This document shows, one piece after another, positions 7,864 to 56,963 of a stretch of 64,000 nt of DNA (position 1 is the first letter of the stretch; each line of letters starts with the position of its first letter). Under the pieces are notes generated by a model. That model saw only the letters and a list, made by a program, of their open reading frames with translations, made no database searches and was not told the origin of the DNA. The position numbers and the translations under genes were made by a program. This DNA is from a phage, in the sequence record PZ386959.1. One strand, written 5' to 3'.

Positions 7864-10563
7864 TCAGTGAACCTCAAGCCAACTCTTTCCAACCTTACCT
7901 GTACCAGTTACAAGTGTTTCTTTCTTAAGACCTAAGTTCTTAGAAGCTTGCCCGTAATACCAATCAGTAACTGCTTTTACTTCTGCCGTCATACTCTCTG
8001 GACATTCCCAGCTAGTCTCATCGTGATATGCGCACAATAAGCGAGCACCTATAGCTGGTTTACGCCCATTTAGCTTCATCAACCCTTCGTCAATCATGCG
8101 ACGACAAGCAAGGTTAATTGCCTCATTTTGAATCTGGGCCTCTGAACCCATCAAAAGGTAGTTCAACAGTTTGTGTGGAGATTTACACCACAACCAAGCT
8201 CCAGCAACCTTTACAAAACCCCCTTTAGAGATTGCAGCAGTCTTACCAAACACCTCTTCAAGTGCCTTTTTAGTTGCTTTGTAGTCAGCTTCCAAGTCAT
8301 CTAGTAGCTTCTTAATTTTAGGCAAACGAATAAAGTAAGTTTGTTTAGTCAGTGCACCTTCCTGAGTAGTTGCAGCTTTAATCGTCTTAGCAAACTTCTC
8401 ATCCCCTGCACCGAACAGCAGTGCATAGATACCATTCTTAGCTTTCTTACGGCCTTTGCTAATCTCATGAAGAAGGTTCTCATCCTGAGTAGCTCGACAA
8501 GTCAAGATGTCCTGCTCATCATTCAAGCTAAAGTAAATACTGTTCAGTGTATGTGCATCAGTCCCTGAATAGACAACGTACAGGTCATTCTCAGAGTCAT
8601 AGCGAAGGTACTTATCAATCTCTGGGTTGAGGTACTCATCAAAATGTTTGCAGTAATAGCGTCCATCTTCTTGACGAATAAACTCAATCTCTTCTTTACC
8701 TTGCGTTACCGCTTTGGTGAACTCTTTATCACCCATAAAGTTACAAAGAAGAACTAGCTGGGCTGAGTTCATATCTACAGAGACAACGTTAGTACCTTCC
8801 TCACAAATCCACACTGCCCTCATTGGTTCCCCATAGACAGCAGCACCAGACGGTACGTTTACAATACCATATTGTGTCATACGTCCAGTTGAAGTACCAA
8901 ACACCATTGCGCCAGCACTAAGGCGACCATCAGGACGAATCTGGTTCAACCAACCTTTTTCATCATCCTTTGAGTTCTCAATAGTTCTGCGTCTGTGCAT
9001 CAAAGTATAGTACTTAGCAATCTTCTGTCCAAGCTCACCTTCAATCGTATCATAAGATGATTCCGTAAGTTTTGGTGAAGTACGGATTAAGCAAGGTTCA
9101 AGCAAATCTGTGTACTTCTTCACAGACCAGTTATGCTCGATGTACTGGACGCCTTCATGCTCGACATAACTCAATCCACACCGTTCTACCATCTCCTGCC
9201 ACTTAGGATGTTTTGTAATCATCTTTTTATTGTCTTTGAAACGACAAACTTTGACAGGGCGACCGTCTGAGTCTTTCTTGTAGTTCCAGTCATCTGGAAT
9301 CCAACCAACTGATTTCAAGTAGTCTTTTACAACTGCTACCTGAGTCATACGAGAAACTTCAAACTCAATTGGTGTATATGGTGCATCAATCAATCCTGTG
9401 TAGCGACTTGACTCAAGTTCAAAGTGGTTAACAACGTGGCTGTTATAGTACTTCACAGTTTTGACTGTTTTTACTGGCTTCCAGTCTTTGCATTTCTTAC
9501 CAATCTTTGCATTCAACTCATTGCAAATTGCACGAGCATCCTTCATTGCTACAAAGCCTTCCTTGTACTCTTCACCAGTTACAGAGTTGGTTGGTGTATA
9601 GCAATTTCTCTTTTCAATGTTAAAAATCTTTGTAGTTGGCTTACCAAATGGTTTGATTTCATAAGTCTGCATCTCACCATTACGCACCTGCTGACGATAC
9701 TTCGTCTTAGGGTACTTGGTAATTCTTTTCAGTCCATCTGCATGACCAAATGCTTCAACATACTCATTCCAAGCTTTTGCAAACTCTTCTCCAGTGACTT
9801 TACCTTTGGTCTTAATAGTTGGAGGTAGATGTGGTTCAACCTCTGAAGCAAGCTCATTAGTCAACTTGTCAAGTTCCTTTACATGGAACTCCATAAGCTC
9901 TTTATCAGCTTTCCAACCATTGATAGCTTGTTGACTCATCCAGAAAGATGTTTCTTTAGCTCGCATATAGGTTTCATAAGTGTCTATACCACACTTCTTA
10001 AGCTTCAGGTATTCATTATCCAGTGCACGTTTAGTTTTGGCGTTAATACGGATATCTTCTACAACACGAGTGAAGATTTCTGCATTCCACACACCCCAAT
10101 GTTCAATCTCTGGTTTACGGACACCAACACGAGCACCCCATGCAGCCAAGCCATGAGCACCTTTATAGCCTTTTGGAGTTGGTCTATCCATCCACTGAAC
10201 ACGAGACTGGATAAGAGAATCCTGAAAGAAATTACTCCACGGTTTACACTTTGGATTATCAAAGTTCCACAAATCAGGTGCAATGTGATTGAAAACCCAC
10301 CAGTCATATCCTAGACCATTGTGGATGCAAAGTCGTTTTGCCTTTAACGCAAACTCAATACCTTCACGTAAGCCGCCCTTAATGTACTTGGTATACTTGT
10401 GACCGAGGATAGGCTCATCTGTAAAGACCCATACAGGTGGCTCTTCATCGTCAGATTTATAGTCTGCGAAAGCCATTACGTGCACTTTAGTGAACTCAAG
10501 GAGTAAACCATCAGTTTCTGTATCACCAACTAAATGTAAGTTTTTAAAATCTACGTTTTCCAT
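7864..10563 (-). CDS. DNA polymerase, family A with 3'-5' exonuclease
   Basis: About 900 aa; DTETDG exo motif near N-terminus, KAKNGIYALLFGAG (motif-B-like), YHDE (motif C); start placed at second Met (MENVDF) which has GAGGGAG SD upstream. Confidence 0.8.
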   Translation of the reverse strand: MENVDFKNLHLVGDTETDGLLLEFTKVHVMAFADYKSDDEEPPVWVFTDEPILGHKYTKYIKGGLREGIEFALKAKRLCIHNGLGYDWWVFNHIAPDLWNFDNPKCKPWSNFFQDSLIQSRVQWMDRPTPKGYKGAHGLAAWGARVGVRKPEIEHWGVWNAEIFTRVVEDIRINAKTKRALDNEYLKLKKCGIDTYETYMRAKETSFWMSQQAINGWKADKELMEFHVKELDKLTNELASEVEPHLPPTIKTKGKVTGEEFAKAWNEYVEAFGHADGLKRITKYPKTKYRQQVRNGEMQTYEIKPFGKPTTKIFNIEKRNCYTPTNSVTGEEYKEGFVAMKDARAICNELNAKIGKKCKDWKPVKTVKTVKYYNSHVVNHFELESSRYTGLIDAPYTPIEFEVSRMTQVAVVKDYLKSVGWIPDDWNYKKDSDGRPVKVCRFKDNKKMITKHPKWQEMVERCGLSYVEHEGVQYIEHNWSVKKYTDLLEPCLIRTSPKLTESSYDTIEGELGQKIAKYYTLMHRRRTIENSKDDEKGWLNQIRPDGRLSAGAMVFGTSTGRMTQYGIVNVPSGAAVYGEPMRAVWICEEGTNVVSVDMNSAQLVLLCNFMGDKEFTKAVTQGKEEIEFIRQEDGRYYCKHFDEYLNPEIDKYLRYDSENDLYVVYSGTDAHTLNSIYFSLNDEQDILTCRATQDENLLHEISKGRKKAKNGIYALLFGAGDEKFAKTIKAATTQEGALTKQTYFIRLPKIKKLLDDLEADYKATKKALEEVFGKTAAISKGGFVKVAGAWLWCKSPHKLLNYLLMGSEAQIQNEAINLACRRMIDEGLMKLNGRKPAIGARLLCAYHDETSWECPESMTAEVKAVTDWYYGQASKNLGLKKETLVTGTGKVGKSWLEVH

Positions 10564-10615
10564 TTTTACTCCCTCTAAAATCATTAACCTCATACATTAC
10601 TGCAAAAAATTATAA

Positions 10616-10645
10616 AAAGCAAGTTGACAATGTACTTGACAAGGT
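10616..10645. promoter_or_regulatory. conserved 30-mer AAAAAGCAAGTTGACAATGTACTTGACAAGGTG at divergent junction
   Basis: Contains two TTGACA hexamers; near-identical copy at 56351-56383, also between divergent transcription units. Confidence 0.45.
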
Positions 10646-10820
10646 GTTAATCTTTGCGAAGTGGGTTTTTACTTAAAAGGTTACTTAACAGTTTAACTAT
10701 ACAGATACTTTAAAACTCTTAAAAGATTATTTAATAGCTTTTAAAAAGCTTTAAAGTATAACGTATAGAATACGTTAAGATAAAAGATTAAAACTTAATA
10801 GTTACTTAAAAGAGGCTTAC

Positions 10821-11243
10821 ATGCAGAAAATGTTTGTTCACCCAGACATAGCTGACTTTGTTAGAGCTTTGCAGAAGTTGGAAGAACTTGACATTGCTGC
10901 TCAACGGGAATATGCTCACCATCACAGGAGAATGGTTGATATACAACATGAGATAGAGTTATCCGAAGACTATGAAGATGACTTAAAATGTTCTGTATTT
11001 GAGCATATGAAAGATGTTGCTACAGCTAGACGTAAAGCTAAAGATACAGTTGCTTTACTAGATTCTCTTAAAAAGAGGTTGCAAAGTGGTACAGACCTGT
11101 GTAACCTAGCATCACTGATTAACGATGTTGAAACGTCTTGGGACAGGCATTACTATCCACGTTCTGAAAAGACACTTGACTTTTCTTCATCTGAAAACTT
11201 AAAATGTTCTAGAAAGAAACTTAACCAACTGAGAGAGAAATAA
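10821..11243 (+). CDS. hypothetical protein
   Basis: 140 aa ORF. Confidence 0.45.
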   Translation: MQKMFVHPDIADFVRALQKLEELDIAAQREYAHHHRRMVDIQHEIELSEDYEDDLKCSVFEHMKDVATARRKAKDTVALLDSLKKRLQSGTDLCNLASLINDVETSWDRHYYPRSEKTLDFSSSENLKCSRKKLNQLREK

Positions 11244-11244
11244 T

Positions 11245-12057
11245 ATGAACATGACTGTAGACCAAATGCTTAAAGAAAAAGGTATTGATGAAGCATTTTT
11301 AATCAATGCTGTAGAAAGCATGGCTATGATTCTTCGTGGAAACAACTATACAGAACAGTTTATGCCAAAAAGCTATAACTTGCCTGAAGATAAAACTGAT
11401 AACGGTGCTTTTGCAGAGCAGGTTAATATGATGCTGTGCGACAAAACACTTGCTTTAGCATCTATCGTTGTAGGTGTTGATGCTCTTGCAGAGTTCATTT
11501 TTTATGAAATGCAGAAAAATGACTATGTTGCCATGACCTCTGAAGAGAAAGACCTGCTACTACTCGCAGGTAATGATGAACTAATTAACCTGTTAATTTC
11601 ATCAACGAGTGCTGTAATGGCTGCTCTTGAGAAGCGCATGGAAGAGAAACTTTCACGATATGAAAAACTTGATTGGGGCGTAGAAGAATTAAACCCACGA
11701 ATCAAAGAGATTATCCAGCAAACTAAAGAGTCTTTGGAAAAAGCTGTTGAAAATGACTCTGTAGCTGATATAGAACCACTTCAGGTGAAAGTTGCACTGA
11801 TGATTCCAGCTATCTCTACGATGATGAATATCGTTGCACTAATCCAACTTTCACAGATGATGGGTGTGAGTGTTGAGTTCATTGAGGAGATGACTGGTGG
11901 CGTTAGTATGCAAGCAATCAATGATGTTCTTATGAGCATCGGTGCATCAATTATTGAAGAGAAACTACGCATCAACTTTGGTGATGAGTTTGTGAAGCAA
12001 GTTGCAGAGATGGCTGAAAAAGAATCTTCTCAAGTGACTGCTAAACAATTGCACTAA
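11245..12057 (+). CDS. hypothetical protein
   Basis: 270 aa ORF, 1-nt gap from upstream gene. Confidence 0.5.
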   Translation: MNMTVDQMLKEKGIDEAFLINAVESMAMILRGNNYTEQFMPKSYNLPEDKTDNGAFAEQVNMMLCDKTLALASIVVGVDALAEFIFYEMQKNDYVAMTSEEKDLLLLAGNDELINLLISSTSAVMAALEKRMEEKLSRYEKLDWGVEELNPRIKEIIQQTKESLEKAVENDSVADIEPLQVKVALMIPAISTMMNIVALIQLSQMMGVSVEFIEEMTGGVSMQAINDVLMSIGASIIEEKLRINFGDEFVKQVAEMAEKESSQVTAKQLH

Positions 12058-12074
12058 TCATTTATAAACTTACA

Positions 12075-12098
12075 AGCCTCCTTAGTTGGGGGCTTTTT
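12075..12098 (+). terminator. intrinsic terminator
   Basis: AGCCTCC-TTAGTT-GGGGGCT followed by TTTTT; same hairpin sequence recurs on the minus strand at 48076-48101. Confidence 0.55.
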
Positions 12099-12117
12099 AG
12101 TAATTGATGGAGATAAA

Positions 12118-12861
12118 ATGAGTAATATCATTGCATTTACTGGAAAGGCACGTTCTGGAAAGGACACCTCTTGTTCTATTGTGAAGGCTATTTTGGAAGA
12201 TGAGTATGGTTACAATGTTGCAGTAATGGCCTTTGCAGATAACCTTAAGATATCTGCTTCCAAGATATTTGACCTTACTTGGAATGACCTTTATGGTGAA
12301 ACTAAAGAGACTCCACAAGTATTTGATTTATCATACCATGAACTTATGTTTAAAGTTGCGGAAGCTATGGAGTTCACCTTCAAAGATGAGAGATACCATC
12401 TTGACTTTAAGCTTATGTCAGAATTAACCGGACGATTAATTATGGAGCTTAAAAAGGTTGCTAAACCAACTTTATTAACACGTCTGGGGTTTAGTAAAAA
12501 ATATAAATTCTCATCAAGGCAAATCCAACAGATTTGGGGTACTGAAGTTATCCGTAAAGTTATGGGTGATAAATTCTGGTCTAAAGACCTTGAAAAAAGG
12601 ATGGTTAACTTCTTTGACGCTTGTGCAATAAGATATCAAGATGGTGTTGTTTTAATCAGTGATTTGAGGTTTGACTCTGAAGCTGAGTGGCTTGGAAGAT
12701 TTCCACACCAAACTATTGAAGTAAAAAGAGACAATGTGGATAAGATTTCGTCACATGTTTCAGAAAATGGTATTTCCACCAAATATGAGCGTGACATTAT
12801 TCATAATAATGGTACTCTTGCAGACCTTGAGAACAAGCTAAGAGCTATTCTGAAAATTTAA
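12118..12861 (+). CDS. deoxynucleoside monophosphate kinase
   Basis: 247 aa; N-terminal P-loop IIAFTGKARSGKDT closely resembles T4 gp1 dNMP kinase (GVKRSGKDT). Confidence 0.7.
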   Translation: MSNIIAFTGKARSGKDTSCSIVKAILEDEYGYNVAVMAFADNLKISASKIFDLTWNDLYGETKETPQVFDLSYHELMFKVAEAMEFTFKDERYHLDFKLMSELTGRLIMELKKVAKPTLLTRLGFSKKYKFSSRQIQQIWGTEVIRKVMGDKFWSKDLEKRMVNFFDACAIRYQDGVVLISDLRFDSEAEWLGRFPHQTIEVKRDNVDKISSHVSENGISTKYERDIIHNNGTLADLENKLRAILKI

Positions 12862-19649: not shown

Positions 19650-21884
19650 ATGATTAAGACAATTAAAAAATCAAACGGTACAGTAGTAAGCTTTGACCCA
19701 GAAAGACTGAATAAGTGGGCATCATGGGCAGATAAACGTGGAATTATCTGGTCAGAAGTCACTATGGAAGCTATGAAACGTGTCTATGAAGGTTGCACTA
19801 CAAAAGAGATGCACCAAGCCATGATTGATGTTTGTGTTGATAAACAAACTCAAGAGTACTCAGATATGGCTGGACGGCTACTTCTGGGGATTATCTACAA
19901 AGAAGCCTTTGGAGGCTTTACTAAGGTTCCTACGCTGATTACCTTCGTTAAAAATATGGAGAGAGCAGGACTTTGGGAGAAGATGGACTATTCACAGGAA
20001 GAGCTTGAATACCTGCAAGGTTACATCGTGCACTCAAAAGATATCTCCTACGGTTATGCAGTCTTGAAACAGTTCAGAGACAAGTATGGCATCCGTGATA
20101 TTAAAACGGGAAGACTTTTTGAGTCACCACAATTTATGTTCATGGGTATGGCTATGAAAGCCTTTGAGAAGCAACCAAAGCACCGTAGACTGCAAGATGT
20201 TATCAAGCTGTACACTTACCTATCTGACCTAAAGATTAACGCCCCTACACCTTATTTAAACGGTTTAAGAGCTACTAAATCAGGTTATGCGTCATGTTGT
20301 TTGATTAAGGCGAACGATACTGCCGAATCACTTGGTATTGCTGCAAAGGTTGCTTATGACATGACTACAAAGCAAGCTGGTATCGGGATGCTGATGGAGA
20401 CTCGCACTATTGGTGATGGTATCCGTCAAAACACGATTGAGCACATGGGTAAGCTGCCTTATTATAAGCTTGTACGTTCATCTGTAGAGGCAAACAAACA
20501 GAAGAGTCGTGGTGGTTCAGCTAATAACTTCTACACTGCTCTAGACCCGCAGATTGAAGATTTACTGCGTTTGAAGCACCCGACAACGGTTCCTTCTAAA
20601 CGTATTAATGAGATGGACTACTCATTCGGCACAAACGATTATTTCTGGCAGTGTGTTCAGTATGATACAGACTGGTTGCTATTCTCTTACAAAGATGCAC
20701 CAAAACTCTATGACATGTTCTACACAGCATCTGCTGATGAGTTTGCTATGGCAGTTGGTCACGCAGTACATTCAGGAGTCAAGCACAGACGAGTCAAGGC
20801 TCGTGAAATTGCTAAGCTGTTTATTCAACAGCGTTATGCTACAGGTCGTGTGTATCCATTCTTCACTAACAATGCAAACACACATACACCATTTAAAGAA
20901 CCATTGAAGATGTCAAATCTTTGCATGGAAATTGTGTTGCCAGTGTATGGTTTTGAGAAAGAGACAGACCTTTACAGAGACGATGCTGTGAAAGAGGATG
21001 GTGAGGTGGCTCTTTGCTTCCTAGCTAGTTTGGTTGCAGGGAGAATTTCAGAAGATGAATACGCTGACGTTGCTTATTATGCTCTTGCAATGGTTGACTC
21101 CGTTATTGACCTTATGGATTATCCGTATCCGTCGATGCGTAACCATGTTCAGAAGCGTCGTTCTGTTGGGATTGGCCTTACAAATGTGGCTCATTACCTT
21201 GCGAAGAACTACGTGAACTACTCTTCACGAGCAGGTAAGACAAAGCTTCATGAGCTTGCTGAAATGCACTCTTACTATCTACATGAAGCCTCTCTGAGAC
21301 TTGCTAAAGAGCGTGGAGTTCCAGAGTACATGAAGTTCACTAAGTACCCTGAAGGCTGGGTTCCTCCAAAGACAGCTAACAAGAAGATTGATGAAAAGCA
21401 TGATGCAAAACTACGATATGATTGGGATAACTTAGCACAACGTATCAAAGAAAATGGTGGAATCCGAAACTCTGTATTAGAAGCTTACATGCCTAATGAG
21501 AGTTCTTCACTAGCAACTAATACGACAAATGGTTTGTACCCAATTCGTGACTTTATTTTAACTAAAAAGTCTGCAACTGGTAACGTACTGTTTATTGTTC
21601 CAGATTATGAAGAGTTGAAGTATGTCTATGAAATTGCTTGGGATATCGACACCTTTGATATGATTGACTGTTATGCAATTGTTCAAAAGTTCACTGGTCA
21701 AGCTATCTCTTCAGACTTCTATGTTGACTATGCAAAGTCTAAGAAGGTATCATTGGCTCAAGCTCTGAAGTACATGATTTATGCCAACTCGGTAGGTATG
21801 AAAACCATGTACTATCTGAACAGCCGTATCGGTGTAGGTAAATCTGCACTGCAAGATGCTTATTGCGAGGGTTGTGGTGTTTAG
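19650..21884 (+). CDS. nrdA: ribonucleoside-diphosphate reductase large subunit
   Basis: 744 aa; N-terminal ATP-cone (IKKSNGTVVSFDPERL), class I RNR alpha body with C-terminal CEGCGV tail. Confidence 0.9.
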   Translation: MIKTIKKSNGTVVSFDPERLNKWASWADKRGIIWSEVTMEAMKRVYEGCTTKEMHQAMIDVCVDKQTQEYSDMAGRLLLGIIYKEAFGGFTKVPTLITFVKNMERAGLWEKMDYSQEELEYLQGYIVHSKDISYGYAVLKQFRDKYGIRDIKTGRLFESPQFMFMGMAMKAFEKQPKHRRLQDVIKLYTYLSDLKINAPTPYLNGLRATKSGYASCCLIKANDTAESLGIAAKVAYDMTTKQAGIGMLMETRTIGDGIRQNTIEHMGKLPYYKLVRSSVEANKQKSRGGSANNFYTALDPQIEDLLRLKHPTTVPSKRINEMDYSFGTNDYFWQCVQYDTDWLLFSYKDAPKLYDMFYTASADEFAMAVGHAVHSGVKHRRVKAREIAKLFIQQRYATGRVYPFFTNNANTHTPFKEPLKMSNLCMEIVLPVYGFEKETDLYRDDAVKEDGEVALCFLASLVAGRISEDEYADVAYYALAMVDSVIDLMDYPYPSMRNHVQKRRSVGIGLTNVAHYLAKNYVNYSSRAGKTKLHELAEMHSYYLHEASLRLAKERGVPEYMKFTKYPEGWVPPKTANKKIDEKHDAKLRYDWDNLAQRIKENGGIRNSVLEAYMPNESSSLATNTTNGLYPIRDFILTKKSATGNVLFIVPDYEELKYVYEIAWDIDTFDMIDCYAIVQKFTGQAISSDFYVDYAKSKKVSLAQALKYMIYANSVGMKTMYYLNSRIGVGKSALQDAYCEGCGV

Positions 21885-28035: not shown

Positions 28036-28356
28036 ATGAGCAAAGTTTATAACACTCGTAAATTACAGATTTTCGTACTGTGCCAGTTTATGGCTAAAGA
28101 GCATAACTACTACTATTGTGGTACAGGATTCATTAGTGATAATGACGGCTCATATCTACCATTCAAAGAGGCTGTAAAGCTCTTCAATGAAGAGAAAAGC
28201 TCTAAGAAAGATATTGAAAAGGTTAAGCTAACCTACAGCAAGAAAGACAAGAAGATTATCTGCCTAGATAACTTTGTAAAAGTTACTGGAGAAGCAAAAG
28301 AGTTTATGGATGAGAGTGAGATTTCATTCACAAGCATCTTGAAAGTAGCTCAGTAA
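28036..28356 (+). CDS. hypothetical protein
   Basis: 106 aa ORF. Confidence 0.4.
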   Translation: MSKVYNTRKLQIFVLCQFMAKEHNYYYCGTGFISDNDGSYLPFKEAVKLFNEEKSSKKDIEKVKLTYSKKDKKIICLDNFVKVTGEAKEFMDESEISFTSILKVAQ

Positions 28357-48706: not shown

Positions 48707-49139
48707 ACTTGTTGCCGTTGTTCTTAATGAGGTCTTCTTCTGTTACTAAGAATGTAATCCCACATAAGTGTGTGTAGTGGCTATCATACTCAAATATTTT
48801 AAGTAAGTATTTACCATCGTGATAAACAGATTCTACTACACCTTTTGCAACAATCTTTCCAGTCTTGAAGTCTTTAAGACGGTATACATTACCAACTTTG
48901 GGGACTGTTTTCACTTCAGGTTCTTTTAGCTTCTCACCAACTTCTACATCACCTAGTAAGTGAGAACTCTCAAACGCTACATATTGCATATAAGTTTCTG
49001 AGCATTCCCAGATAAAACAATGTACAAGAACCTTAGCAGCATGTCTTGAGCAATTCAACTTATCACAAATTTCTGTGTACATCTCATCTTTAGTTGAGTT
49101 GTTAAGCATTGCTTTTTGAACTACTTCTTTAATTTTCAT
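48675..49139 (-). CDS. hypothetical protein
   Basis: 154 aa ORF. Confidence 0.45.
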   Translation of the reverse strand: MKIKEVVQKAMLNNSTKDEMYTEICDKLNCSRHAAKVLVHCFIWECSETYMQYVAFESSHLLGDVEVGEKLKEPEVKTVPKVGNVYRLKDFKTGKIVAKGVVESVYHDGKYLLKIFEYDSHYTHLCGITFLVTEEDLIKNNGNKFAVPAYQVLR

Positions 49140-49557
49140 AAGCTCTCCGAATAACCCTATTAAGCATCTCTAAAGTCAGCTTTCCAGATTCTAAATGCGG
49201 CATAACAAGCTTTAAAGCTTTTTCAACATCATGCACAACAGCTATTATACCTTCTTCATAGGCTTCTACAAGGATATCTTTTACGTTTTGTTGGTTATCT
49301 TTTTGTGGTATTGCTAGACGCATATTAAACTCATTTGCTTGAGGGTGGTCACTACCACGCCAGTAACCATCTTTGTTAAAGCTGATGTAGTCACCGTGGT
49401 AAAAGTGTACACCATTAGCTTTAAACTTCTCCAGCACAAGGCATTGAATTGGGTATTCAGTATTCCACTCCCTGACTCCTATAACCTTCACTGTTGCGAT
49501 GTACTCCTGTGTTTTTGCATCTATGATGTCAAGTTCTTGACCAGCTATGATTTGCAT
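49129..49557 (-). CDS. hypothetical protein
   Basis: 142 aa ORF. Confidence 0.45.
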   Translation of the reverse strand: MQIIAGQELDIIDAKTQEYIATVKVIGVREWNTEYPIQCLVLEKFKANGVHFYHGDYISFNKDGYWRGSDHPQANEFNMRLAIPQKDNQQNVKDILVEAYEEGIIAVVHDVEKALKLVMPHLESGKLTLEMLNRVIRRAYEN

Positions 49558-49610
49558 ATTCGCTACCTTCTAAGTTTCTACAAAGGGGCTATCAAGTAAC
49601 CCCTAAGTTA

Positions 49611-49835
49611 TTACTCAGACTTTTCAGTCTTCTTATCGGATTTCTTACTAGTCTTCTTCTCAGCTTTCTGTTCAGGCTCCTTCTCAGAAGTTGCCTTGAT
49701 AACCATATCAAGAAGCTCTGATAAGTCACTCTTCAGCAAAGTAACAGGCTGCTCGTTGTAGAAGTTTTTGTCAAGATAAACTTTGAACTCTTCTATAGAA
49801 GGAAATCCAAAAATTGGTACAGGTGTCTTAATCAT
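49611..49835 (-). CDS. hypothetical protein with Lys-rich tail
   Basis: 74 aa ORF. Confidence 0.4.
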   Translation of the reverse strand: MIKTPVPIFGFPSIEEFKVYLDKNFYNEQPVTLLKSDLSELLDMVIKATSEKEPEQKAEKKTSKKSDKKTEKSE

Positions 49836-49911
49836 TACTTAGTCTCTCCATAGGCATCTTTCAAGATTGCCTTGTTAATCATTTCAGCGATTGCAAAACG
49901 AACACATACAG

Positions 49912-50445
49912 CTATAATTGTAGGTTGCATTCTTTACTTACCTCTTCAAGTTTAACCTCAGAGTCCTTAAGTCGTTTCTTATGAACTCTGAATCTTATTA
50001 GTGAGATGATGATACCAGCTAAAGGAACAGCATACAAGTACCAGATATCATGTAGCTTTGCAGTAATCTGTGTAATTGTCAAATCTTGAGCTATGTAGCT
50101 GATTGCTGATACTGCTAGTAATGTTGCTAAGAAAAACACTAGTATCATTGCAATATTCATACAACCTCTGGCATGGTACTCATGCTTAATACACTTATTC
50201 TTTTCGTCAACAACCCTGTTGTAGTCGTTTGTAAAGTCTCTGTAGAAAGCTTTCAAGTATTCTTGACTGTAGCCTTCAAAGCAACCTGTACCGTACCAAT
50301 AATCACCACCAAAATGTGCTATGATACCAGTATCCCCATTTGGTTTGGTTACTCTTAGTGAAGTATGATGACCAGTCTTCTGATAATCTATCTTGTATCT
50401 TTCTTCGTAAATCATTTCCCAACCCCTCTCAATCGTTTGTTCCAC
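49912..50445 (-). CDS. membrane protein
   Basis: 177 aa; central TM segment MNIAMILVFFLATLLAVSAISYIA. Confidence 0.45.
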   Translation of the reverse strand: MEQTIERGWEMIYEERYKIDYQKTGHHTSLRVTKPNGDTGIIAHFGGDYWYGTGCFEGYSQEYLKAFYRDFTNDYNRVVDEKNKCIKHEYHARGCMNIAMILVFFLATLLAVSAISYIAQDLTITQITAKLHDIWYLYAVPLAGIIISLIRFRVHKKRLKDSEVKLEEVSKECNLQL

Positions 50446-50630
50446 TCAAGGTCAACAAGTCTTTGCAGGACTTTCCCTCTAGGTGTTACACCTTTTAAAT
50501 CTGCATCGTAGCAACGGTAAAAGTCACCTTCAGCGTGTTTACCGTAGCATTTTCTGATATTCTGGCTCCTACGATACTGCTCTAACAGGGACAGTTTGTA
50601 GTAGTCTTCAACTGTAGTTAGTTTTTTCAT
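50412..50630 (-). CDS. hypothetical protein
   Basis: 72 aa ORF. Confidence 0.35.
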   Translation of the reverse strand: MKKLTTVEDYYKLSLLEQYRRSQNIRKCYGKHAEGDFYRCYDADLKGVTPRGKVLQRLVDLEWNKRLRGVGK

Positions 50631-51172
50631 TCTTTCACCATAGCGTTTCTGAACTGGCGTTGTGTTTCTCTTGTAATTTCGTTTGGGGTAAACCCTGCTT
50701 TTAGCATATCTCTGAAAAGAACTTCTAAATGGTTCCTCTCAATGATGTAAATGGCATTCTGAATAGCTGTTTTGCGCTCCTTCAGGTCACTACTAATCTC
50801 TTCGCACTTACTGGTAAGCTCTGTGTCAACTTTCTTATAGACTGGCATAACATGTGCGTAGCAACCTTTATTAGTCTCCATGAAAAATTTAAAAGATTCT
50901 TCAGAGTCCTTTAGGGCAATCCCTATAAAGTTTTTGTAAGCACCTGTGAAAGATAAGGAATCAATCTCAGCAGTTGAGTATACAGTCCCTGCACACAGTC
51001 TTGCAGAAGTACTGAATGTGTGGTTTGGTGTTGTGTCAAAGTCTAAGTTCTTCAGTGGTCGGAAATAAACTGTACCATTGTGTGAGATGTGTGTTACAAC
51101 AGCCTCAACACTCTTTGAAGGATTCTGTTTAACATACAAAATAATTTTATCGTGCTCTTTCACTTTAGCCAT
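50627..51172 (-). CDS. hypothetical protein
   Basis: 181 aa ORF. Confidence 0.5.
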   Translation of the reverse strand: MAKVKEHDKIILYVKQNPSKSVEAVVTHISHNGTVYFRPLKNLDFDTTPNHTFSTSARLCAGTVYSTAEIDSLSFTGAYKNFIGIALKDSEESFKFFMETNKGCYAHVMPVYKKVDTELTSKCEEISSDLKERKTAIQNAIYIIERNHLEVLFRDMLKAGFTPNEITRETQRQFRNAMVKE

Positions 51173-51244
51173 AACTATTCTCCAGAAACTAAAAAGGGAA
51201 CTACCTCTCGATAGCTCCCATCATAGTCAATATTGTATACTCGG

Positions 51245-51826
51245 TCAAGAGTATTTTTTAGGCAGCAATGCACTGCGCTTGTTACTCTCTTCACTCAATA
51301 GTGCAATGAAATCATCACTTTTACCTTTCCACGGGCTGAATGAAGGGATATGCTCACGAATGGCTTCAATCACCGTTTTCAGTGCTGTATTTTTCATCCA
51401 CCAATCAGAATCTGCTGATGCTACCACGTAGTATCCACCGTCATCAGTTAAAATTGGCTCTGAAATACATGGTGAAATCAAAGTGGTGATGATTGAACCG
51501 TTGTTCATGTAGTATGTGCGCTTCATAACCTTTTCAAGAAGCTTGTGAAGGTCACCAAACAGTGTTACAAGCTCTTTGTGGTCAATGTCTTTTTCGAGGT
51601 TTGCTCGATACTTCAATAGTGCGGCATCAACCTCTCTGTCATTGAACTTGAAATATTGAACTTCTTCAACAAGGCAAACACTGATGTTGTTAACATTCAT
51701 AGTCAACTTACAAACTTTTACAGGAGAGTTGATATTTGGTTGAAAAAGTGCAATACACCCTTCAATATTTCCAAAATGCTGTACCAGTGTTACTTGTGGC
51801 GTGATATTCTGTTGCTCTTCGGACAT
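51245..51826 (-). CDS. hypothetical protein
   Basis: 193 aa ORF. Confidence 0.5.
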   Translation of the reverse strand: MSEEQQNITPQVTLVQHFGNIEGCIALFQPNINSPVKVCKLTMNVNNISVCLVEEVQYFKFNDREVDAALLKYRANLEKDIDHKELVTLFGDLHKLLEKVMKRTYYMNNGSIITTLISPCISEPILTDDGGYYVVASADSDWWMKNTALKTVIEAIREHIPSFSPWKGKSDDFIALLSEESNKRSALLPKKYS

Positions 51827-52170
51827 TACAGTTTCCTCATTAAATACTTTTTAAGTTGTGTGTTAGGTTTCTCAAAAACTTCTATAGAAGATATCTTGAC
51901 AGACTCACCACGCATACCAGTATGTTTGAATATGTAGTACTCTAACATCCCTATATACTTTGCTGGTAAGTCATATTTTACATACACCGTCACAGAATCT
52001 TCAAACTCAACAACCTTTGTACCATCTTTGTAGTTAAACTCTTTAGGATGGTTGTAGTTGTCTATGTCATACATTAAAAAGAGTCTTTTCCGTTGCATAT
52101 CAAGCTTGTTTGTTAAAGACTCTTTGATATCTGAGAAGTTTTTGTAAACTGTGACATGGAGCTTACTCAT
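51826..52170 (-). CDS. hypothetical protein
   Basis: 114 aa ORF. Confidence 0.45.
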   Translation of the reverse strand: MSKLHVTVYKNFSDIKESLTNKLDMQRKRLFLMYDIDNYNHPKEFNYKDGTKVVEFEDSVTVYVKYDLPAKYIGMLEYYIFKHTGMRGESVKISSIEVFEKPNTQLKKYLMRKL

Positions 52171-52456
52171 CGTTAAACTCTCTGACGAAGAAATAGTTGA
52201 CTTTGTTATTACCTACCATAAGGTCAAAGCAGGTATTTTCAAAAGGCTTGTTGCAGGCATCGTATGAAACATATGGGTCAGCTACTTGCTTAGTGCTTAA
52301 CTTCTTACTTGATGGATTTAAGAGGCCACCATACAGCTTCTTGATAGCCTCTTCTACAACAGACCAGATAATTTCGTCAGTAATTTCTTCGTACAGGTCA
52401 AGTTCACGCTCTAGTGAGAAGTCACAAATAGGGAAAACAACCTGTACTTTACTCAT
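52163..52456 (-). CDS. hypothetical protein
   Basis: 97 aa ORF. Confidence 0.45.
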   Translation of the reverse strand: MSKVQVVFPICDFSLERELDLYEEITDEIIWSVVEEAIKKLYGGLLNPSSKKLSTKQVADPYVSYDACNKPFENTCFDLMVGNNKVNYFFVREFNDE

Positions 52457-52845
52457 TAACGAACAACCTGTGAGACTTGAATTGCTTCAGTTACAGACAA
52501 ATCACCAACTTTCTCTTCTTTGATAAAAGTGAAGGTGAGTTCAACAGGCTCTTGCTCTTCTTGCTCAACTGGAATGCCATTAAGCTCATCGCGGATTGAT
52601 TGAGTTGTCCAGTCTTCTCCACCATCTGGATAATGGATGGCGTAAAGAGGAAACTCCATGTCATACCAGCCAAATACAGGGCAACCATCTGCATCATCTC
52701 GCATTCTGCGAAGGGTGCTACCTGAGCCTGTAAAGCGAAGACTAATATTCCCATTACACTCAAAAATCACTGCGTCAGCAAGTCCAGCATCTTCTCGACC
52801 ATCATGGCCAAAGGTGTCAACTTTTACTTGAATCTCTTTATTCAT
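52456..52845 (-). CDS. hypothetical protein
   Basis: 129 aa ORF. Confidence 0.45.
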   Translation of the reverse strand: MNKEIQVKVDTFGHDGREDAGLADAVIFECNGNISLRFTGSGSTLRRMRDDADGCPVFGWYDMEFPLYAIHYPDGGEDWTTQSIRDELNGIPVEQEEQEPVELTFTFIKEEKVGDLSVTEAIQVSQVVR

Positions 52846-53236
52846 AAAAACCTCTCTCTGCTTGTTCTATTTTTGCTCTTAAAGCTTCGCAATGTTGTAA
52901 ATGATAGTTAGCTTCTTGTTCATGTGTTGCTAACTGCCTTTCCAGAACAGTTTTATAATAACTTGCGAGTTGCTCTTTTGTCAATGGGTGCTCTGAAATA
53001 ATATCAAGTCCACTTTCACCAAGAGGGTTGAATTGCCCATGTTCATTGACATTGTAAGTCTCAAACTTGAAGAGGCCATTGTTCACAGACTCGATAGGTG
53101 ACAGTTCAACAAGCTCTACAGTAAACCGTGTATATACCTTGTCACCTCTTGAAACCACATTGTTTCCGACAATACGTACAAGCGAGCCATTACGAGTGTA
53201 CTTAAAAGTTCCAAAGTCACTAGCCCAAAGTTTCAT
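52838..53236 (-). CDS. hypothetical protein
   Basis: 132 aa ORF. Confidence 0.45.
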   Translation of the reverse strand: MKLWASDFGTFKYTRNGSLVRIVGNNVVSRGDKVYTRFTVELVELSPIESVNNGLFKFETYNVNEHGQFNPLGESGLDIISEHPLTKEQLASYYKTVLERQLATHEQEANYHLQHCEALRAKIEQAERGFYE

Positions 53237-53250
53237 AGTTTTCTCCTTAG

Positions 53251-53277
53251 AAAATAAAAAAGGCTCCCGAAGGAGCC
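53251..53277 (-). terminator. intrinsic terminator (minus strand)
   Basis: Palindrome GGCTCC-CGAA-GGAGCC with T-run on minus strand, 3' of endolysin gene. Confidence 0.6.
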
Positions 53278-53287
53278 TATGAAGATA

Positions 53288-53752
53288 TTACTTTGGATAT
53301 ACACTGTCAAGATAAATGTTAGCTTCCATTCTACGTCTATTTTTCAGGCCGTTTGAAGTGACCTTCTCACCTTTGACTGTAATCTTGTTCCACCACTGCA
53401 TAGCTTCTGCACAACCTACCTTATTACCAGCATTGTGGCGCTTAATAAATGTAGAATCCTGCATAGCTGTGATACCAATGTTGTATGTTTCACTTACAAG
53501 TGCATCGAACTCATTCTGAGAGGTTGGAACCTTGATAGCTTTGTTCACTGCTGCAACAAACTTTTCAACATCTGCGAGAAGATACTGTTCAGCTTGTCCA
53601 GCCGTGATTTTCATACCCATCTTAACAGGTTTTCCGTCAATACGGATTGTACCATACCCGATTGTTGGGATTCCGGCAGAGTCTTTGTAAGCCTCTAACT
53701 TCAGACCTTCAAAGAACTTAATGGCTTCTAAGCCTTTTCTTGAGAGTTGCAT
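53288..53752 (-). CDS. endolysin (lysozyme, GH24-like)
   Basis: 154 aa; LEAIKFFEGLKLEAYKDSAGIPTIGYGT is the canonical phage lysozyme N-terminal catalytic motif (E..AY.D..G..TIGYG). Confidence 0.85.
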   Translation of the reverse strand: MQLSRKGLEAIKFFEGLKLEAYKDSAGIPTIGYGTIRIDGKPVKMGMKITAGQAEQYLLADVEKFVAAVNKAIKVPTSQNEFDALVSETYNIGITAMQDSTFIKRHNAGNKVGCAEAMQWWNKITVKGEKVTSNGLKNRRRMEANIYLDSVYPK

Positions 53753-54885
53753 TATGCCTCCCCTGTTGGGTTAACTGTAACTGTTGCCGCATTAGATGTT
53801 ACAGAGCCACCTGCACCAGTCACTACGCAAGTGTAGCTTCCTGCATCAGCAGCAGTTGCACCTTCTTTGGTGTAAGTTGCAGTCATTGCGTCTGGGATGT
53901 TTTCCTCACCCTTCTTCCACTGGTAACCTGTCGCACCTGTTGCCACAACGTTGAGTGTCAATGTCTCACCTTCAGTGATTTCTTGATTAGTTGGCTGTTG
54001 AGTGATTACAGGAAGTGCTTTAACGGTTACTGTTGCAGGGCTAGAAGTAACGGAACCACCTGCACCTGTTACAACGCAAGTATATGAACCTGCATCTGCT
54101 GGTAGTGCGCCAGACTTGCTATAAGTAGCGTTTGTAGCTGAAGGAATATTAGAGCCATCTTTCTTCCACTGATAGCCCGTTGCACCTGTGGCAGTCACTT
54201 CCAAGCTAATGTTGCCACCTTCATTGATGGTCTGGCTAGAAGGTTGTTTGGTAATCACTGGTAAAGCGTTCACAGTAACTGTTGCTTCATCTGAGGTAAC
54301 GCTTGTTCCAGCCTCTCCAGATACAACACAAGTGTATGAGCCAGCGTCAGAAGGTACTACAGATTGTTTTGTGTAAGTTGCAGAAGTGGCACTGGGGATA
54401 TCCTCACCATCCTTCTTCCACTGATATCCAGTGGCGTTAGTTGCTAGAACACTTAGAGTAAGTGTGCCACCCTCATTGACTGTTTGTCCTGTTGGTTGCT
54501 GAGTAATTGCTGGTGGCTTAATAGCATCCTTCAGCTTAGCATTCAACATTGAGAATGGCTTCACTCTTGCCAGCCATTCACAGTAAATTGTGTCAACATC
54601 TTTACCGTTGATAATTGCATACTGTAAATCCATGAAGAAATCAGCAGTTCTCATCTGCGCGCCGACGCTGTAAAGGAGTTCATCACTAAATGGAACTTTG
54701 TAGTCTGGTTTGTAATCAAACTTCTCAACTTCTGCAATATCAGCTTCAGGCCAATATGAACTATAGGTAAGTGGTAAAATAGCTTCTTGATATGTTCTAA
54801 AATCATATCTCTTACCAGCCTTTACATTTGCAATGAAGCCCTTTACAAATTCTTTGAAGTCTGGGTAAGTCTTTGCTTTAATCAT
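53752..54885 (-). CDS. protein with three tandem Ig-like domains
   Basis: 377 aa; N-domain about 130 aa followed by 3 repeats of about 84 aa each containing GYQWKKDG and GSYTCVV (Ig Y-x-C signature). Confidence 0.6.
   Translation of the reverse strand: MIKAKTYPDFKEFVKGFIANVKAGKRYDFRTYQEAILPLTYSSYWPEADIAEVEKFDYKPDYKVPFSDELLYSVGAQMRTADFFMDLQYAIINGKDVDTIYCEWLARVKPFSMLNAKLKDAIKPPAITQQPTGQTVNEGGTLTLSVLATNATGYQWKKDGEDIPSATSATYTKQSVVPSDAGSYTCVVSGEAGTSVTSDEATVTVNALPVITKQPSSQTINEGGNISLEVTATGATGYQWKKDGSNIPSATNATYSKSGALPADAGSYTCVVTGAGGSVTSSPATVTVKALPVITQQPTNQEITEGETLTLNVVATGATGYQWKKGEENIPDAMTATYTKEGATAADAGSYTCVVTGAGGSVTSNAATVTVNPTGEA
53755..54510 (-). repeat. 3 tandem copies of a ~252-bp coding repeat (Ig-like domain units)
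   Basis: DNA-level periodicity visible (CTTCCACTG.TA.CC.GT.GCACCTGT recurs at about 252-bp spacing). Confidence 0.6.
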
Positions 54886-55253
54886 TTCTTTTTAGCCTCT
54901 AAACGTGCGTTTAATCTAAAATAGCCTTTATGTTGTGGAGACACATCACTAACAACAATACCTTCAACTTTATAGCCCTTACCAATTACATACTGGATAT
55001 CCATAAGAAACGTACCAAGCCCAACAATGTGGAACATCGGGTATAGTAACTTATCTGAATCTGGGAGTTTAATTTCTGGGTTATAGGCGGGTTGTTCGGC
55101 AGTTGGTGTAATATCCTCTTCAGGCCATTTACTCATTCTCCATGTTAAAGGTGATGCAATAACATCGTTGAGATTATATCTTTCACCATTCTCCACGGAG
55201 TGGATATAGGATTGTAGGAAGCAGTAAAAGTCTTTTGCACTCTTAGCCTTCAT
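54882..55253 (-). CDS. paralogue of the N-terminal domain of the Ig-like protein
   Basis: 123 aa; aligns with residues 1-125 of 53752..54885 (KDFYCFLQSYI.. vs PDFKEFVKGFI.., FLMDIQYVI vs FFMDLQYAI). Confidence 0.5.
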   Translation of the reverse strand: MKAKSAKDFYCFLQSYIHSVENGERYNLNDVIASPLTWRMSKWPEEDITPTAEQPAYNPEIKLPDSDKLLYPMFHIVGLGTFLMDIQYVIGKGYKVEGIVVSDVSPQHKGYFRLNARLEAKKK

Positions 55254-55300
55254 TAAATATCCTTATAAATAGAGAAAGGGGCATCAGCCCCTGTTTATAC

Positions 55301-55891
55301 TTAAGCTTTGGTCTTAAGTAGGTTCTTAAGTTTTTTGAGATTCATGCTCTCGTCAAACTTAAAACCAAATCCATTGACATAATCAATGAACTCGGATTTC
55401 TTACTCAGTGATAGTGCGTAACTCATATCGAAGTTATTACTTGTTTCTGCATCTGGACTAGAGTTCACATCAAATGAAATTTCTGTAGGCTCTTGCTTGC
55501 TACTTCTCATATTATCAATCAATAGACAGGTATAGTTTGCTGGATAGAAGTTAACACTACCATCAACATATCCATACTTGTTATTGTGAATAAGGCTGGA
55601 AAATACCTTAAGAAATGTTTCTGATTCGTGGCATACAAGTTTGAATTGACTGCATTCTCCAAGAGCCACTAAAGAGTAAGGACTTTCACTATCAATGTCG
55701 TAGTTTGGGTTTGATGTTGTAACCGTCACACGCATCAGGTTATTTGCAATAGTCTTCTGCTTGAAAGAATTTGGAACATAGTGAAGACCTCTATCACACT
55801 GATTAACTAGCTCTTTCAATAGGTCATTTGCATATGGTGAATTAATTGATACAGAGCCATCACTATTATAATTAAAACTTACTGTTAACAT
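55301..55891 (-). CDS. hypothetical protein
   Basis: 196 aa ORF. Confidence 0.5.
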   Translation of the reverse strand: MLTVSFNYNSDGSVSINSPYANDLLKELVNQCDRGLHYVPNSFKQKTIANNLMRVTVTTSNPNYDIDSESPYSLVALGECSQFKLVCHESETFLKVFSSLIHNNKYGYVDGSVNFYPANYTCLLIDNMRSSKQEPTEISFDVNSSPDAETSNNFDMSYALSLSKKSEFIDYVNGFGFKFDESMNLKKLKNLLKTKA

Positions 55892-56118
55892 TTTTCAGTT
55901 CTCCTGCGATTTATGATTTTGCTGCAATAGAGAAACGAAGTAAACTCACTGGAAGAAACCATTAAGTGTTGTTCACTAGATTGAGCCATTGCCCTGAAAT
56001 ACATTCCAGTCAAAGCATCGTAGTGACTATTCTTTCCAATTGAGGTTATATAGCCATGACTCTTTGCAGTTTTATATAAATCTATAATATCTGCGATTTC
56101 TAATTGGGAACTACACAT
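55885..56118 (-). CDS. hypothetical protein
   Basis: 77 aa ORF. Confidence 0.4.
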   Translation of the reverse strand: MCSSQLEIADIIDLYKTAKSHGYITSIGKNSHYDALTGMYFRAMAQSSEQHLMVSSSEFTSFLYCSKIINRRRTEKC

Positions 56119-56282
56119 AGATAATCCTCTTGTCTTCTGTAATTTTGAAAGAACAGGTACAGACCAATTTCAGAGGATGAATAGTAGAGTAACTCTACCC
56201 TTTTTGATTCCTTACAGTGATTGGTATTTTTACCTTTCTTCGGGTTATTTGATTTTCTCATTAAGTCTCCTTTGTAGAACAA
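56100..56282 (-). CDS. hypothetical basic protein
   Basis: 60 aa ORF. Confidence 0.3.
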   Translation of the reverse strand: MFYKGDLMRKSNNPKKGKNTNHCKESKRVELLYYSSSEIGLYLFFQNYRRQEDYLCVVPN

Positions 56283-56350
56283 GGCAGACCTACAGCTTTA
56301 AGTAAGATGGTACAGTAATCCATACAACAAGTCAAGAACTATTGCAAGTT

Positions 56351-56383
56351 AAAAAAGTTGTTGACAAAGTACTTGACAAGGTG
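56351..56383. promoter_or_regulatory. second copy of conserved element AAAAAAGTTGTTGACAAAGTACTTGACAAGGTG
   Basis: Near-identical to 10616-10645; followed by TATAAAT; sits at a divergent junction. Confidence 0.45.
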
Positions 56384-56510
56384 TAGGCTTATAAATACTT
56401 AGAAGATAACTTAAAAGGTTCCTCTAAAAAGGCTATTTAAACAGATATCTTTCTGGATATCTATCTTTTATCTTAAAAGCCTTTTAAGAGGTCTTATAAG
56501 AGGCATACCA

Positions 56511-56882
56511 ATGAAAAACAGAACAAACAAAGGCCAGTTTAAAAAAGGCCAGTCTGGTAACCCATCTGGAAGACCGAAAGGTTCACGTAACAAAAGCTCA
56601 CTCGTAAAAGCTCAACTGACCATTGATAATTCTGCTGAGTTCGCTGCAAAGCTGTTTGAGGCGATTGTTACAAGGGATGCGGCTAAGCTTGCAGAGTTCG
56701 GGTTAAACACAGATGACGTAACCATCAAGAGTATGATTGAGGTCGGTAAAACTATCTTTACTCACTCAGCAGGTGAGATGAAAGCACTTGCAGCAGACAC
56801 TAAGAAGACTCCTGATAATGGTGGTCAACAACAGACAGATAACAAACCAACGTTCTCTGCTGTAGCGACTCTCAAAAAATAA
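56511..56882 (+). CDS. hypothetical protein with GNPSGRPKG motif
   Basis: 123 aa; N-terminal basic Gly-rich segment KGQSGNPSGRPKGSRNK. Confidence 0.45.
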   Translation: MKNRTNKGQFKKGQSGNPSGRPKGSRNKSSLVKAQLTIDNSAEFAAKLFEAIVTRDAAKLAEFGLNTDDVTIKSMIEVGKTIFTHSAGEMKALAADTKKTPDNGGQQQTDNKPTFSAVATLKK

Positions 56883-56963
56883 TTTTAAAAGGTGTTGACA
56901 GACTCTACAAAGTTGCTCTAAAGTCTGTCACATCAAACAATAAATGAGAGAAGAGAGTAAAAT

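Follow-up and report, generated by a model that had tools for sequence, protein, structure and literature searches.

Strong early phage promoters of the sigma-70 type, such as T7 A1/A2/A3, lambda PL/PR and the early promoters of T5, are accompanied by UP-like A/T tracts, and the UP consensus of Estrem et al. reportedly has A/T-rich sequence between -40 and -60, including a run of A at about -46 to -41. The lambda CII promoters PRE, PI and PaQ carry a TTGC-N6-TTGC direct repeat with a 10-nt period that flanks a poor -35 box. The Pho box, bound by the OmpR-family protein PhoB, is made up of two 7-nt repeats with an 11-nt period that replace the -35 box. Salmonella typing and biocontrol both make wide use of Felix O1-type phages. 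The transcription programme of these phages has hardly been mapped, and the analysis reported here offers concrete promoter assignments for it.

For Felix O1 itself, a promoter named P41 was predicted as TTGACA(N15)TATAGG, nothing similar was reported in the region of genes 96-97, and the start points of the divergent units as well as the control of timing were left open (Whichard 2010, PMC3185647). RT-PCR in the same study grouped ORFs 41, 42 and 96-99 in one class that peaked at 25 min and assigned ORF22 to the 5-min class. Beyond this 2010 RT-PCR table, no start-site mapping or RNA-seq for Felixounavirus was found in the literature searched.

The window analyzed in this study is the whole stretch of 64,000 nucleotides of the record PZ386959.1. 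A megablast search with positions 9500-12500 returned a total of 261 phage records, nearly all of them from Felixounavirus or close relatives, the closest being Escherichia virus TH10 with 98%. Judging from such matches, the source of the window is a Felix O1-like myovirus of the genus Felixounavirus. The map of open reading frames (ORFs) and the annotation of relatives agree with the four "transcriptons" of Felix O1 (Whichard et al. 2010, PMC3185647), and the blocks are as follows.

Window 1 to ~10563, minus strand: block with the DNA polymerase at its end
10821 to ~46500, plus strand: block of genes 97-131 and 1-23
46.5-48.1 kb: ORF-free convergent region
48113 to 56261, minus strand: block of genes 40-24
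From 56511, plus strand: block of genes 41 and 42, then 24 tRNA genes

Such a layout leaves only two divergent junctions per genome of the Felix O1 type, both of which lie within the window. At junction 1, the DNA polymerase on the minus strand faces away from ORF 10821-11243 on the plus strand (Felix O1 gene 97), and at junction 2, a 53-aa ORF ending at 56261 on the minus strand faces away from a DUF5681 ORF at 56511-56882 on the plus strand (Felix O1 gene 41). The DNA polymerase ORF has three in-frame ATGs at 10593, 10584 and 10563. A good Shine-Dalgarno sequence (GAGGGAG) is present only at the last of these and distant homologues align from residue 11 on; the real start is probably ATG 10563 and not 10593, and the start differs between public records. 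The DUF5681 protein, which is the first in the packaging/morphogenesis unit, has a basic N-terminus (GNPSGRPKG), and since to our knowledge no small terminase subunit has been recognised in Felix O1-type phages, it is a possible candidate for this role.

The element TTGACAA[T/A]GTACTTGACAAGGTG was found at 10624-10646 (site 1) and at 56361-56383 (site 2). With their upstream flanks, the 33-mer of site 1 (AAAAAGCAAGTTGACAATGTACTTGACAAGGTG, 10614-10646) and that of site 2 (56351-56383) share 28 of their 33 positions; within the 23-nt core TTGACAAnGTACTTGACAAGGTG, 22 positions are identical. A search that tolerated three mismatches found the core exactly twice in the window and not once in 100 shuffles. 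The initial annotation had described two near-identical elements placed where minus-strand and plus-strand blocks diverge. Both statements are borne out, as no such pair is expected by chance and the copies occupy the only two divergent junctions. Its coordinates were exact for the second copy and off by 1-2 nt for the first (10616-10645 against 10614-10646), and the two hexamers that it called overlapping are in tandem, with their TTGACA starts 12 nt apart and a 6-nt gap between them. Both copies point rightward, so the element itself serves plus-strand units only.

A 34-nt query retrieved 285 phage records and matched exactly two places in nearly all complete Felixounavirus genomes. The search for further copies that had been proposed yielded a third, looser copy (TTGACAATACCCATTGACA) at 45087-45105 on the plus strand, which is not at a divergent junction and is kept in Felix O1 upstream of ORF22. 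No further TT[GT]ACA-N3-9-TT[GT]ACA was found in the remaining 23.7 kb outside the window, as read from TH10. Both divergent junctions and one further site therefore share one promoter architecture, the parts of which are listed below together with the leaders that follow them.

10614-10623, plus strand: A-tract of site 1 (AAAAAGCAAG), similar to the proximal subsite of an UP element, with an upstream profile common to 25 sites
10624-10629, plus strand: hexamer 1 of site 1, TTGACA, putative -35 box for ORF 10821-11243 (gene 97); score 11.5, rank 48
10636-10641, plus strand: hexamer 2 of site 1, TTGACA, within the spacer (about -24 to -19); best -10 partner AAGTGG, rank 5023
10645-10653, plus strand: TGn and putative -10 box TAATCT of site 1, with an 18-nt spacer
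10660-10820, plus strand: noncoding leader of site 1, 77% A+T, with TTACTTAAAAG-type words
45076-45115, plus strand: third double-hexamer promoter, TTAAAAAAGTG-TTGACA-ATACCCA-TTGACA-TTGG-TAACTT; rank 25
56335-56307, minus strand: candidate leftward promoter TTGACT-N17-TACCAT for the unit of genes 40-24
56351-56360, plus strand: A-tract of site 2 (AAAAAAGTTG)
56361-56366, plus strand: hexamer 1 of site 2, TTGACA, putative -35 box for the DUF5681 ORF (gene 41); score 13.0, rank 17
56373-56378, plus strand: hexamer 2 of site 2, TTGACA, within the spacer (-23 to -18); best partner AATACT with a 15-nt spacer, rank 277
56384-56389, plus strand: putative -10 box TAGGCT of site 2, with a 17-nt spacer
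56396-56510, plus strand: noncoding leader of site 2, in which ACTTAGAAG / ACTTAAAAG words pair with CTTTTAAG / CTTATAAG

On the basis of this geometry and of the comparative conservation described below, the two elements are probably the upstream halves of two host sigma-70 promoters that head both rightward units, a reading to which we give a probability of about 0.72. Several features of the sigma-70 type are present at all three places, namely an exact TTGACA at 10624, 56361 and 45087, the bases T-12, A-11 and T-7 at a spacing of N16-18 (TAATCT, N18; TAGGCT, N17; TAACTT, N17), and the right orientation, with plus-strand ORFs that begin 115-160 nt downstream and no ORF in between. In the third promoter the hexamers are offset by 13 nt, a TGn is present, TAACTT follows after N17, and the ORF downstream is 45274-45804 (Felix O1 ORF22). 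The -10 boxes are weak, each of them matching the consensus at 3 of 6 positions, and it is for this reason that a stricter consensus scan called no plus-strand promoter at site 1 or site 2.

Promoter-like sites were scored over 640,000 positions in the window with a simple position weight matrix built on approximate Harley-Reynolds frequencies. The pairings of hexamer 1 rank 48 (site 1), 17 (site 2) and 25 (45087) of 640,000, whereas the best pairings of hexamer 2 rank 5023, 277 and 2162 respectively. Hexamer 1 is thus best read as the putative -35 box. Hexamer 2 was also considered as the true -35 box and was rejected, since its partner at site 2 is not conserved and sites 1 and 3 offer it no TAnnnT. 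The same observations bear on the possibility of two overlapping promoters, in which each TTGACA would be a -35 box with a -10 box of its own and the starts would lie ~10-12 nt apart. The site 2 pairing of hexamer 2 with AATACT over N15 does have a rank of 277 among 640,000 and was the one chosen by the annotators of phage ASO1A; however, hexamer 2 lacks a TAnnnT at 15-19 nt at site 1 (best AAGTGG) and at 45087 (best GGGGGT), and AATACT is replaced by AACACT in Suspvirus and Mooglevirus and missing in a Hafnia phage. We consider this arrangement improbable.

Earlier promoter calls at these places are of the same general kind. Hexamer 1 of site 2 corresponds to Felix O1 position 21515, which is where the predicted P41 begins (PMC3185647), and Felix O1 does carry the element at its 96-97 junction (DNA polymerase), where it was missed in that study. 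In GenBank MZ726791 (vB_EcoM_ASO1A), promoters are annotated at both junctions as TTGACA(N15-18)TATAAT-like, with hexamer 1, N16 and GTTAAT paired at site 1, and hexamer 2, N15 and AATACT paired at site 2. The public promoter calls disagree over which hexamer is the -35 box. Predictions of sigma-70-like promoters were already known here, and what is new is the double hexamer as a shared feature.

A total of 25 TTGACA-N16-18-TAnnnT sites were found in the window, many of which are intergenic and on the coding strand. Across these sites the upstream profile consists of an A-run at -55 to -52, a T-run at -49 to -46 and an A-run at -45 to -40, followed by GTTG, a tract whose layout resembles that of an UP element. 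The register of the A-tract before hexamer 1 matches that of the other ~25 TTGACA promoter-like sites. Since AAAAAG..GTTGACA is common to ~25 sites, it represents the general promoter signature of the phage and not one specific to the junctions. The promoter assignment of the initial annotation has support from sequence and comparison, although as a promoter of the host sigma-70 type and not as a class-specific one. More TTGACA-N17/18-TAnnnT sites were observed among the tRNA genes, at 56895, 58398, 58489, 59991 and 60400, the 24 tRNA genes themselves being located at 58545-63553 on the plus strand, downstream of the site 2 promoter.

The sites resemble the T7, lambda and T5 early promoters in several respects, as they have a consensus or near-consensus TTGACA, a spacer of 17-18 nt, an A-tract upstream and a location at the start of phage transcription units, and their imperfect -10 boxes retain T-12, A-11 and T-7. 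Unlike those promoters, they contain a spacer TTGACA that is kept across genera, -10 boxes that match at 3 of 6 positions, and AT-rich leaders of 115-160 nt.

The leftward candidate at site 2 stands back-to-back with the rightward promoter with a common A/T tract between them. Within 56323-56385, the leftward TTGCAATAGTTCTTGACTTGTTGTA and the rightward TTGACAAAGTACTTGACAAGGTGTA, each read on its own strand, match at 18 of 25 positions (72%). If this mirror similarity were taken at face value, the leftward promoter may also carry an upstream hexamer, TTGCAA, at a 12-nt spacing; the similarity is indistinguishable from chance combined with a shared -35 consensus. At site 1, no convincing leftward promoter of the sigma-70 type was found for the DNA polymerase (best score 7.3). 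A perfect leftward TATAAT at 10614-10609 was considered as a -10 box and rejected, because no -35 box stands at a workable distance from it (the reverse-strand TTGTCA boxes are 9 or 21 nt away) and because it is not kept in Suspvirus or Mooglevirus.

The comparison across Ounavirinae lineages showed a TAnnnT 17-18 nt after hexamer 1 at both orthologous junctions of all the lineages sampled. The -10 boxes found at site 1 (96/97 junction) and site 2 (40/41 junction) are given below.

Suspvirus (EcSzw_1): site 1 TAATCT, site 2 TAGCCT
Mooglevirus (HP1): site 1 TAGTCT, site 2 TAGCCT
Hafnia phage SarahDanielle: site 1 TAATGT, site 2 TACTCT
Pectobacterium phages: site 1 TAGGCT (Arno162), site 2 TACCCT with TGn (Arno162, Wc4-1)
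Kolesnikvirus: site 1 TACATT (SE5), site 2 TACACT after TTTACA (phiEa104)

The substitutions in these boxes leave T-12, A-11 and T-7 intact, as in the changes from TAATCT to TAGTCT and from TAGGCT to TAGCCT.

Natural variants of the element were gathered from IMG/VR with flank-anchored patterns in which the hexamers were left free. Six variants were found among 28 sequences for site 1 (IMG/VR, the window and relatives), with all the differences located in the 6-nt gap, and three variants among 19 sequences for site 2, with differences only at one gap position and at -13. Hexamers 1 and 2 of site 1 are invariant in six taxa whereas the gap (10630-10635) varies, and across genera both hexamers remain invariant around gaps that read ATGTAC, ATTCAC, AATCAC, AAGTAC, AATGAC and TTCCTC. 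The intergenic regions of the distant Hafnia phage can hardly be aligned, but each junction has two exact TTGACA, with offsets of 10 and 11 nt, and the sole other exact TTGACA double of that genome lies within the tail-fibre gene. The second hexamer is missing in Kolesnikvirus, which has single hexamers, and at site 2 of the Pectobacterium phages; in Arno162, one of these, site 1 has TTTACA at a 14-nt offset and site 2 has just the one hexamer.

A second exact TTGACA within the spacer occurs in three of the 25 promoter-like sites of the window against 0.12 expected, and none of 5000 spacer shuffles reached three. Together with the variants, this points clearly to selection on hexamer 2 in the Escherichia / Salmonella / Citrobacter / Hafnia lineages. 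An origin of the likeness by duplication or gene conversion of one junction promoter, with hexamer 2 functionless, was weighed against these data. In Felixounavirus the cores match at 22 of 23 positions and ACTTAAAAGGTT lies downstream of both at an almost equal distance. However, the Mooglevirus copies differ in gap and flanks with both hexamers kept, the Hafnia phage retains both hexamers at altered offsets, and the independent third promoter likewise carries a second hexamer, and we regard such an origin as very improbable.

As Kolesnikvirus lacks hexamer 2, and the Pectobacterium phages lack it at site 2, it is not required for promoter function. Its offset floats between 10 and 14 nt across the lineages, which makes a rigid two-site binding protein unlikely and argues against a fixed contact of hexamer 2 with RNA polymerase. 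A floating offset is compatible with a spacer site that is read independently, such as an operator site or a sigma region 4 decoy. An operator-like role for hexamer 2 is the inference that we prefer, although it is speculative and should be taken as tentative. The suggestion of a shared operator or class-specific promoter made at first is plausible only for hexamer 2 and its flanks, which are clearly constrained and define a subclass of three promoters (10624, 56361 and 45087). In biological terms, the most likely reading of the element is a host-type promoter of the ordinary sort that has one additional regulatory site.

In the mechanism that we propose, unmodified host sigma-70 RNA polymerase would read both promoters through the UP-like A-tract, the consensus -35 box (hexamer 1) and the spacer. 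The site 1 promoter would start the gene 97 unit, which leads on to the dNMP kinase, primase/helicase and nucleotide metabolism genes, and the site 2 promoter would start the gene 41 unit, which leads through gene 42 and the tRNA cluster to the morphogenesis genes farther downstream. Transcription is predicted to start near 10660 and 56396 and to pass into AT-rich noncoding leaders of ~115-160 nt. Hexamer 2 has no usable -10 box and would not act as a -35 box; it is a separately selected site that marks the three-member subclass. As an operator or a sigma region 4 decoy, it could allow a phage or host factor to modulate promoters that otherwise bind strongly, which is a speculative step.

A stronger version of this last step is that a DNA-binding protein of phage or host origin recognizes the TTGACAA repeats or the hexamer 2 core CTTGACAAG and turns the three promoters on or off jointly. 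Lambda CII at TTGC-N6-TTGC would be the nearest parallel in mechanism, and such a protein would provide the unexplained temporal control of Felix O1. This is in keeping with the invariance of hexamer 2 and its flanks around a variable gap, with the three members having the weakest -10 boxes of the TTGACA promoter-like sites, with the downstream leader containing CTTAAAAG words that is common to all three, and with the placement of ORFs 41, 42 and 97-99 in one RT-PCR class. In the Hafnia relative, many intergenic TTTACA doubles with a 10-nt period also suggest a family of protein-bound words. On the other hand, the offset is not constant even within one phage (12, 12 and 13 nt in the window, 10 and 11 nt in the Hafnia phage), the first downstream genes yielded no regulator, and ORF22 behind the third copy belongs to the 5-min class and not to the 25-min class. 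The hexamer is moreover identical to the sigma-70 -35 consensus, so that its sequence is explained without an extra factor. We therefore hold a common protein switch to be possible but doubtful.

The search for a regulator (Pfam, PHROGs and PDB sequence) covered the gene 97-like, DUF5681 and ORF22-like proteins and two small leftward ORFs, in which no DNA-binding domain was detected; these proteins are not paralogues. The known binding sites that come closest differ from the element in defined ways. Like the lambda CII promoters, it is a phage site that has short direct repeats spaced by about one turn of the helix together with a weak -10 box, but its period is 12 nt (10-14 nt among relatives), the repeated unit is the -35 consensus and the second copy is in the spacer. 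No CII-like gene was identified, and a CII-type activator site was rejected on its period (12 against 10 nt), on the repeat being TTGACA and on the presence of the -35 consensus. The opposite strand of the element, TGTCAA-N6-TGTCAA, is similar to the Pho box CTGTCAT-N4-CTGTCAT; the Pho box was rejected because the element has a period of 12 nt and not 11, runs in the opposite orientation and contains a consensus -35 box. A T4-type late promoter was rejected in turn, with TATAAATA found only at site 2 (56391-56398) and TAATAAAA in its place in Suspvirus and Mooglevirus. Likeness to half-sites of sigma-32, sigma-E, FNR, TrpR and ArcA was set aside as it depends on gap bases that vary between genera.

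The leaders after all three double-hexamer promoters are ~115-160 nt long and rich in CTTAAAAG, CTTAACAG and CTTTTAAG, and they contain no ORF of at least 20 aa. The site 1 leader exceeds every other 160-nt stretch of the window in A+T content (top 0.05%). As RNA, it has a fold z-score of -2.2 against shuffles and three compensatory pairs with four sequences aligned, and the site 2 leader has a fold z-score of -2.7 and six compensatory pairs with four sequences including the Hafnia phage. An Rfam scan of the whole window matched only the 24 tRNA genes, leaving the leaders without a known RNA family.

These leaders are also relevant to a transcription-primed replication origin comparable to the T7 primary origin or T4 oriF/oriG, which would apply especially to site 1 by the DNA polymerase gene. 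The A+T content of the site 1 leader and the lack of ORFs in the leaders would suit an origin, as would the cumulative GC skew, which has its minimum at ~11 kb and a local minimum at ~55-56 kb. However, GC skew tracks the direction of transcription too, so minima are expected at any divergent junction; in addition the leaders end in a Shine-Dalgarno sequence and start codon and show covariation of the RNA type, and DnaA boxes and long iterons are absent. An origin at these sites is accordingly judged to be highly improbable, and host sigma-70 promoters followed by noncoding leaders remain the preferred reading.

Both the site 1 and site 2 leaders fold as extended hairpins. In the site 1 leader, a small stem at 10759-10777 shows covariation when genera are compared, and in the site 2 leader, compensatory changes preserve the outer stem in the Hafnia phage. 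The segment GUGGGUUUUU at the 5' end of the site 1 leader is able to pair with the Shine-Dalgarno region.

The ORF-free convergent region at 46500-48110 (1.6 kb) is dense in CTTGTTAG, CTGTTAAG, CTTAAAAG, CTATAAAG and TATAGAG on both strands, and these words are often spaced at 10-11 nt. Of these, CTGTTAAG is the reverse complement of the leader word CTTAACAG. The region, which is not discussed in the Felix O1 paper (PMC3185647), may be an origin, an array of protein-binding sites or a region involved in packaging. It is conceivable, though unlikely, that hexamer 2 and the CTTAAAAG / CTTAACAG arrays in the leaders and at 46.5-48.1 kb together form the cis part of an undescribed regulatory system of Ounavirinae. 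If so, a phage DNA-binding protein in the spacer of three host-type promoters with strong binding and on the downstream arrays would time the rightward units, which would answer how Felix O1, encoding no RNA polymerase or known sigma modifier, orders its expression.

In the Hafnia phage MW749010, many TTTACA-N4-TTTACA doubles with a 10-nt period occur at 41100-43600 and at 28235. They read TTGTAAAG-N2-TTGTAAAG on the coding strand, are intergenic and lie in the early-gene block. These doubles often adjoin GGGG...CCCC hairpins, and an array at 41123-41160 contains four to five tandem TTTACA.

Two further families of repeats with promoter-like sites were observed in the window. The first is a ~57-bp repeat, TACTTTACAAGGGGCTTA-N-TAAGCCCCAGATAAAGAGCTTTACC, with five copies on the plus strand at 41093, 41473, 42548, 43344 and 43678, each of which contains a promoter-like TTTACA-N17-TAAAGT and an 8-bp hairpin over the spacer and the -10 box. 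These correspond to the "57 bp direct repeats" of Felix O1, and their -35 context (GTACTTTACAAGG) is closely similar to that of hexamer 2. The second, TTGACACTGATTTTTAGATAGATTAAATTACACATCAAC (TTGACA-N17-TAAATT), is present in two copies on the plus strand at 42179 and 43045, is followed by a GGGGAGG...CCTTCCCC hairpin and corresponds to the "39 bp repeats" of Felix O1.
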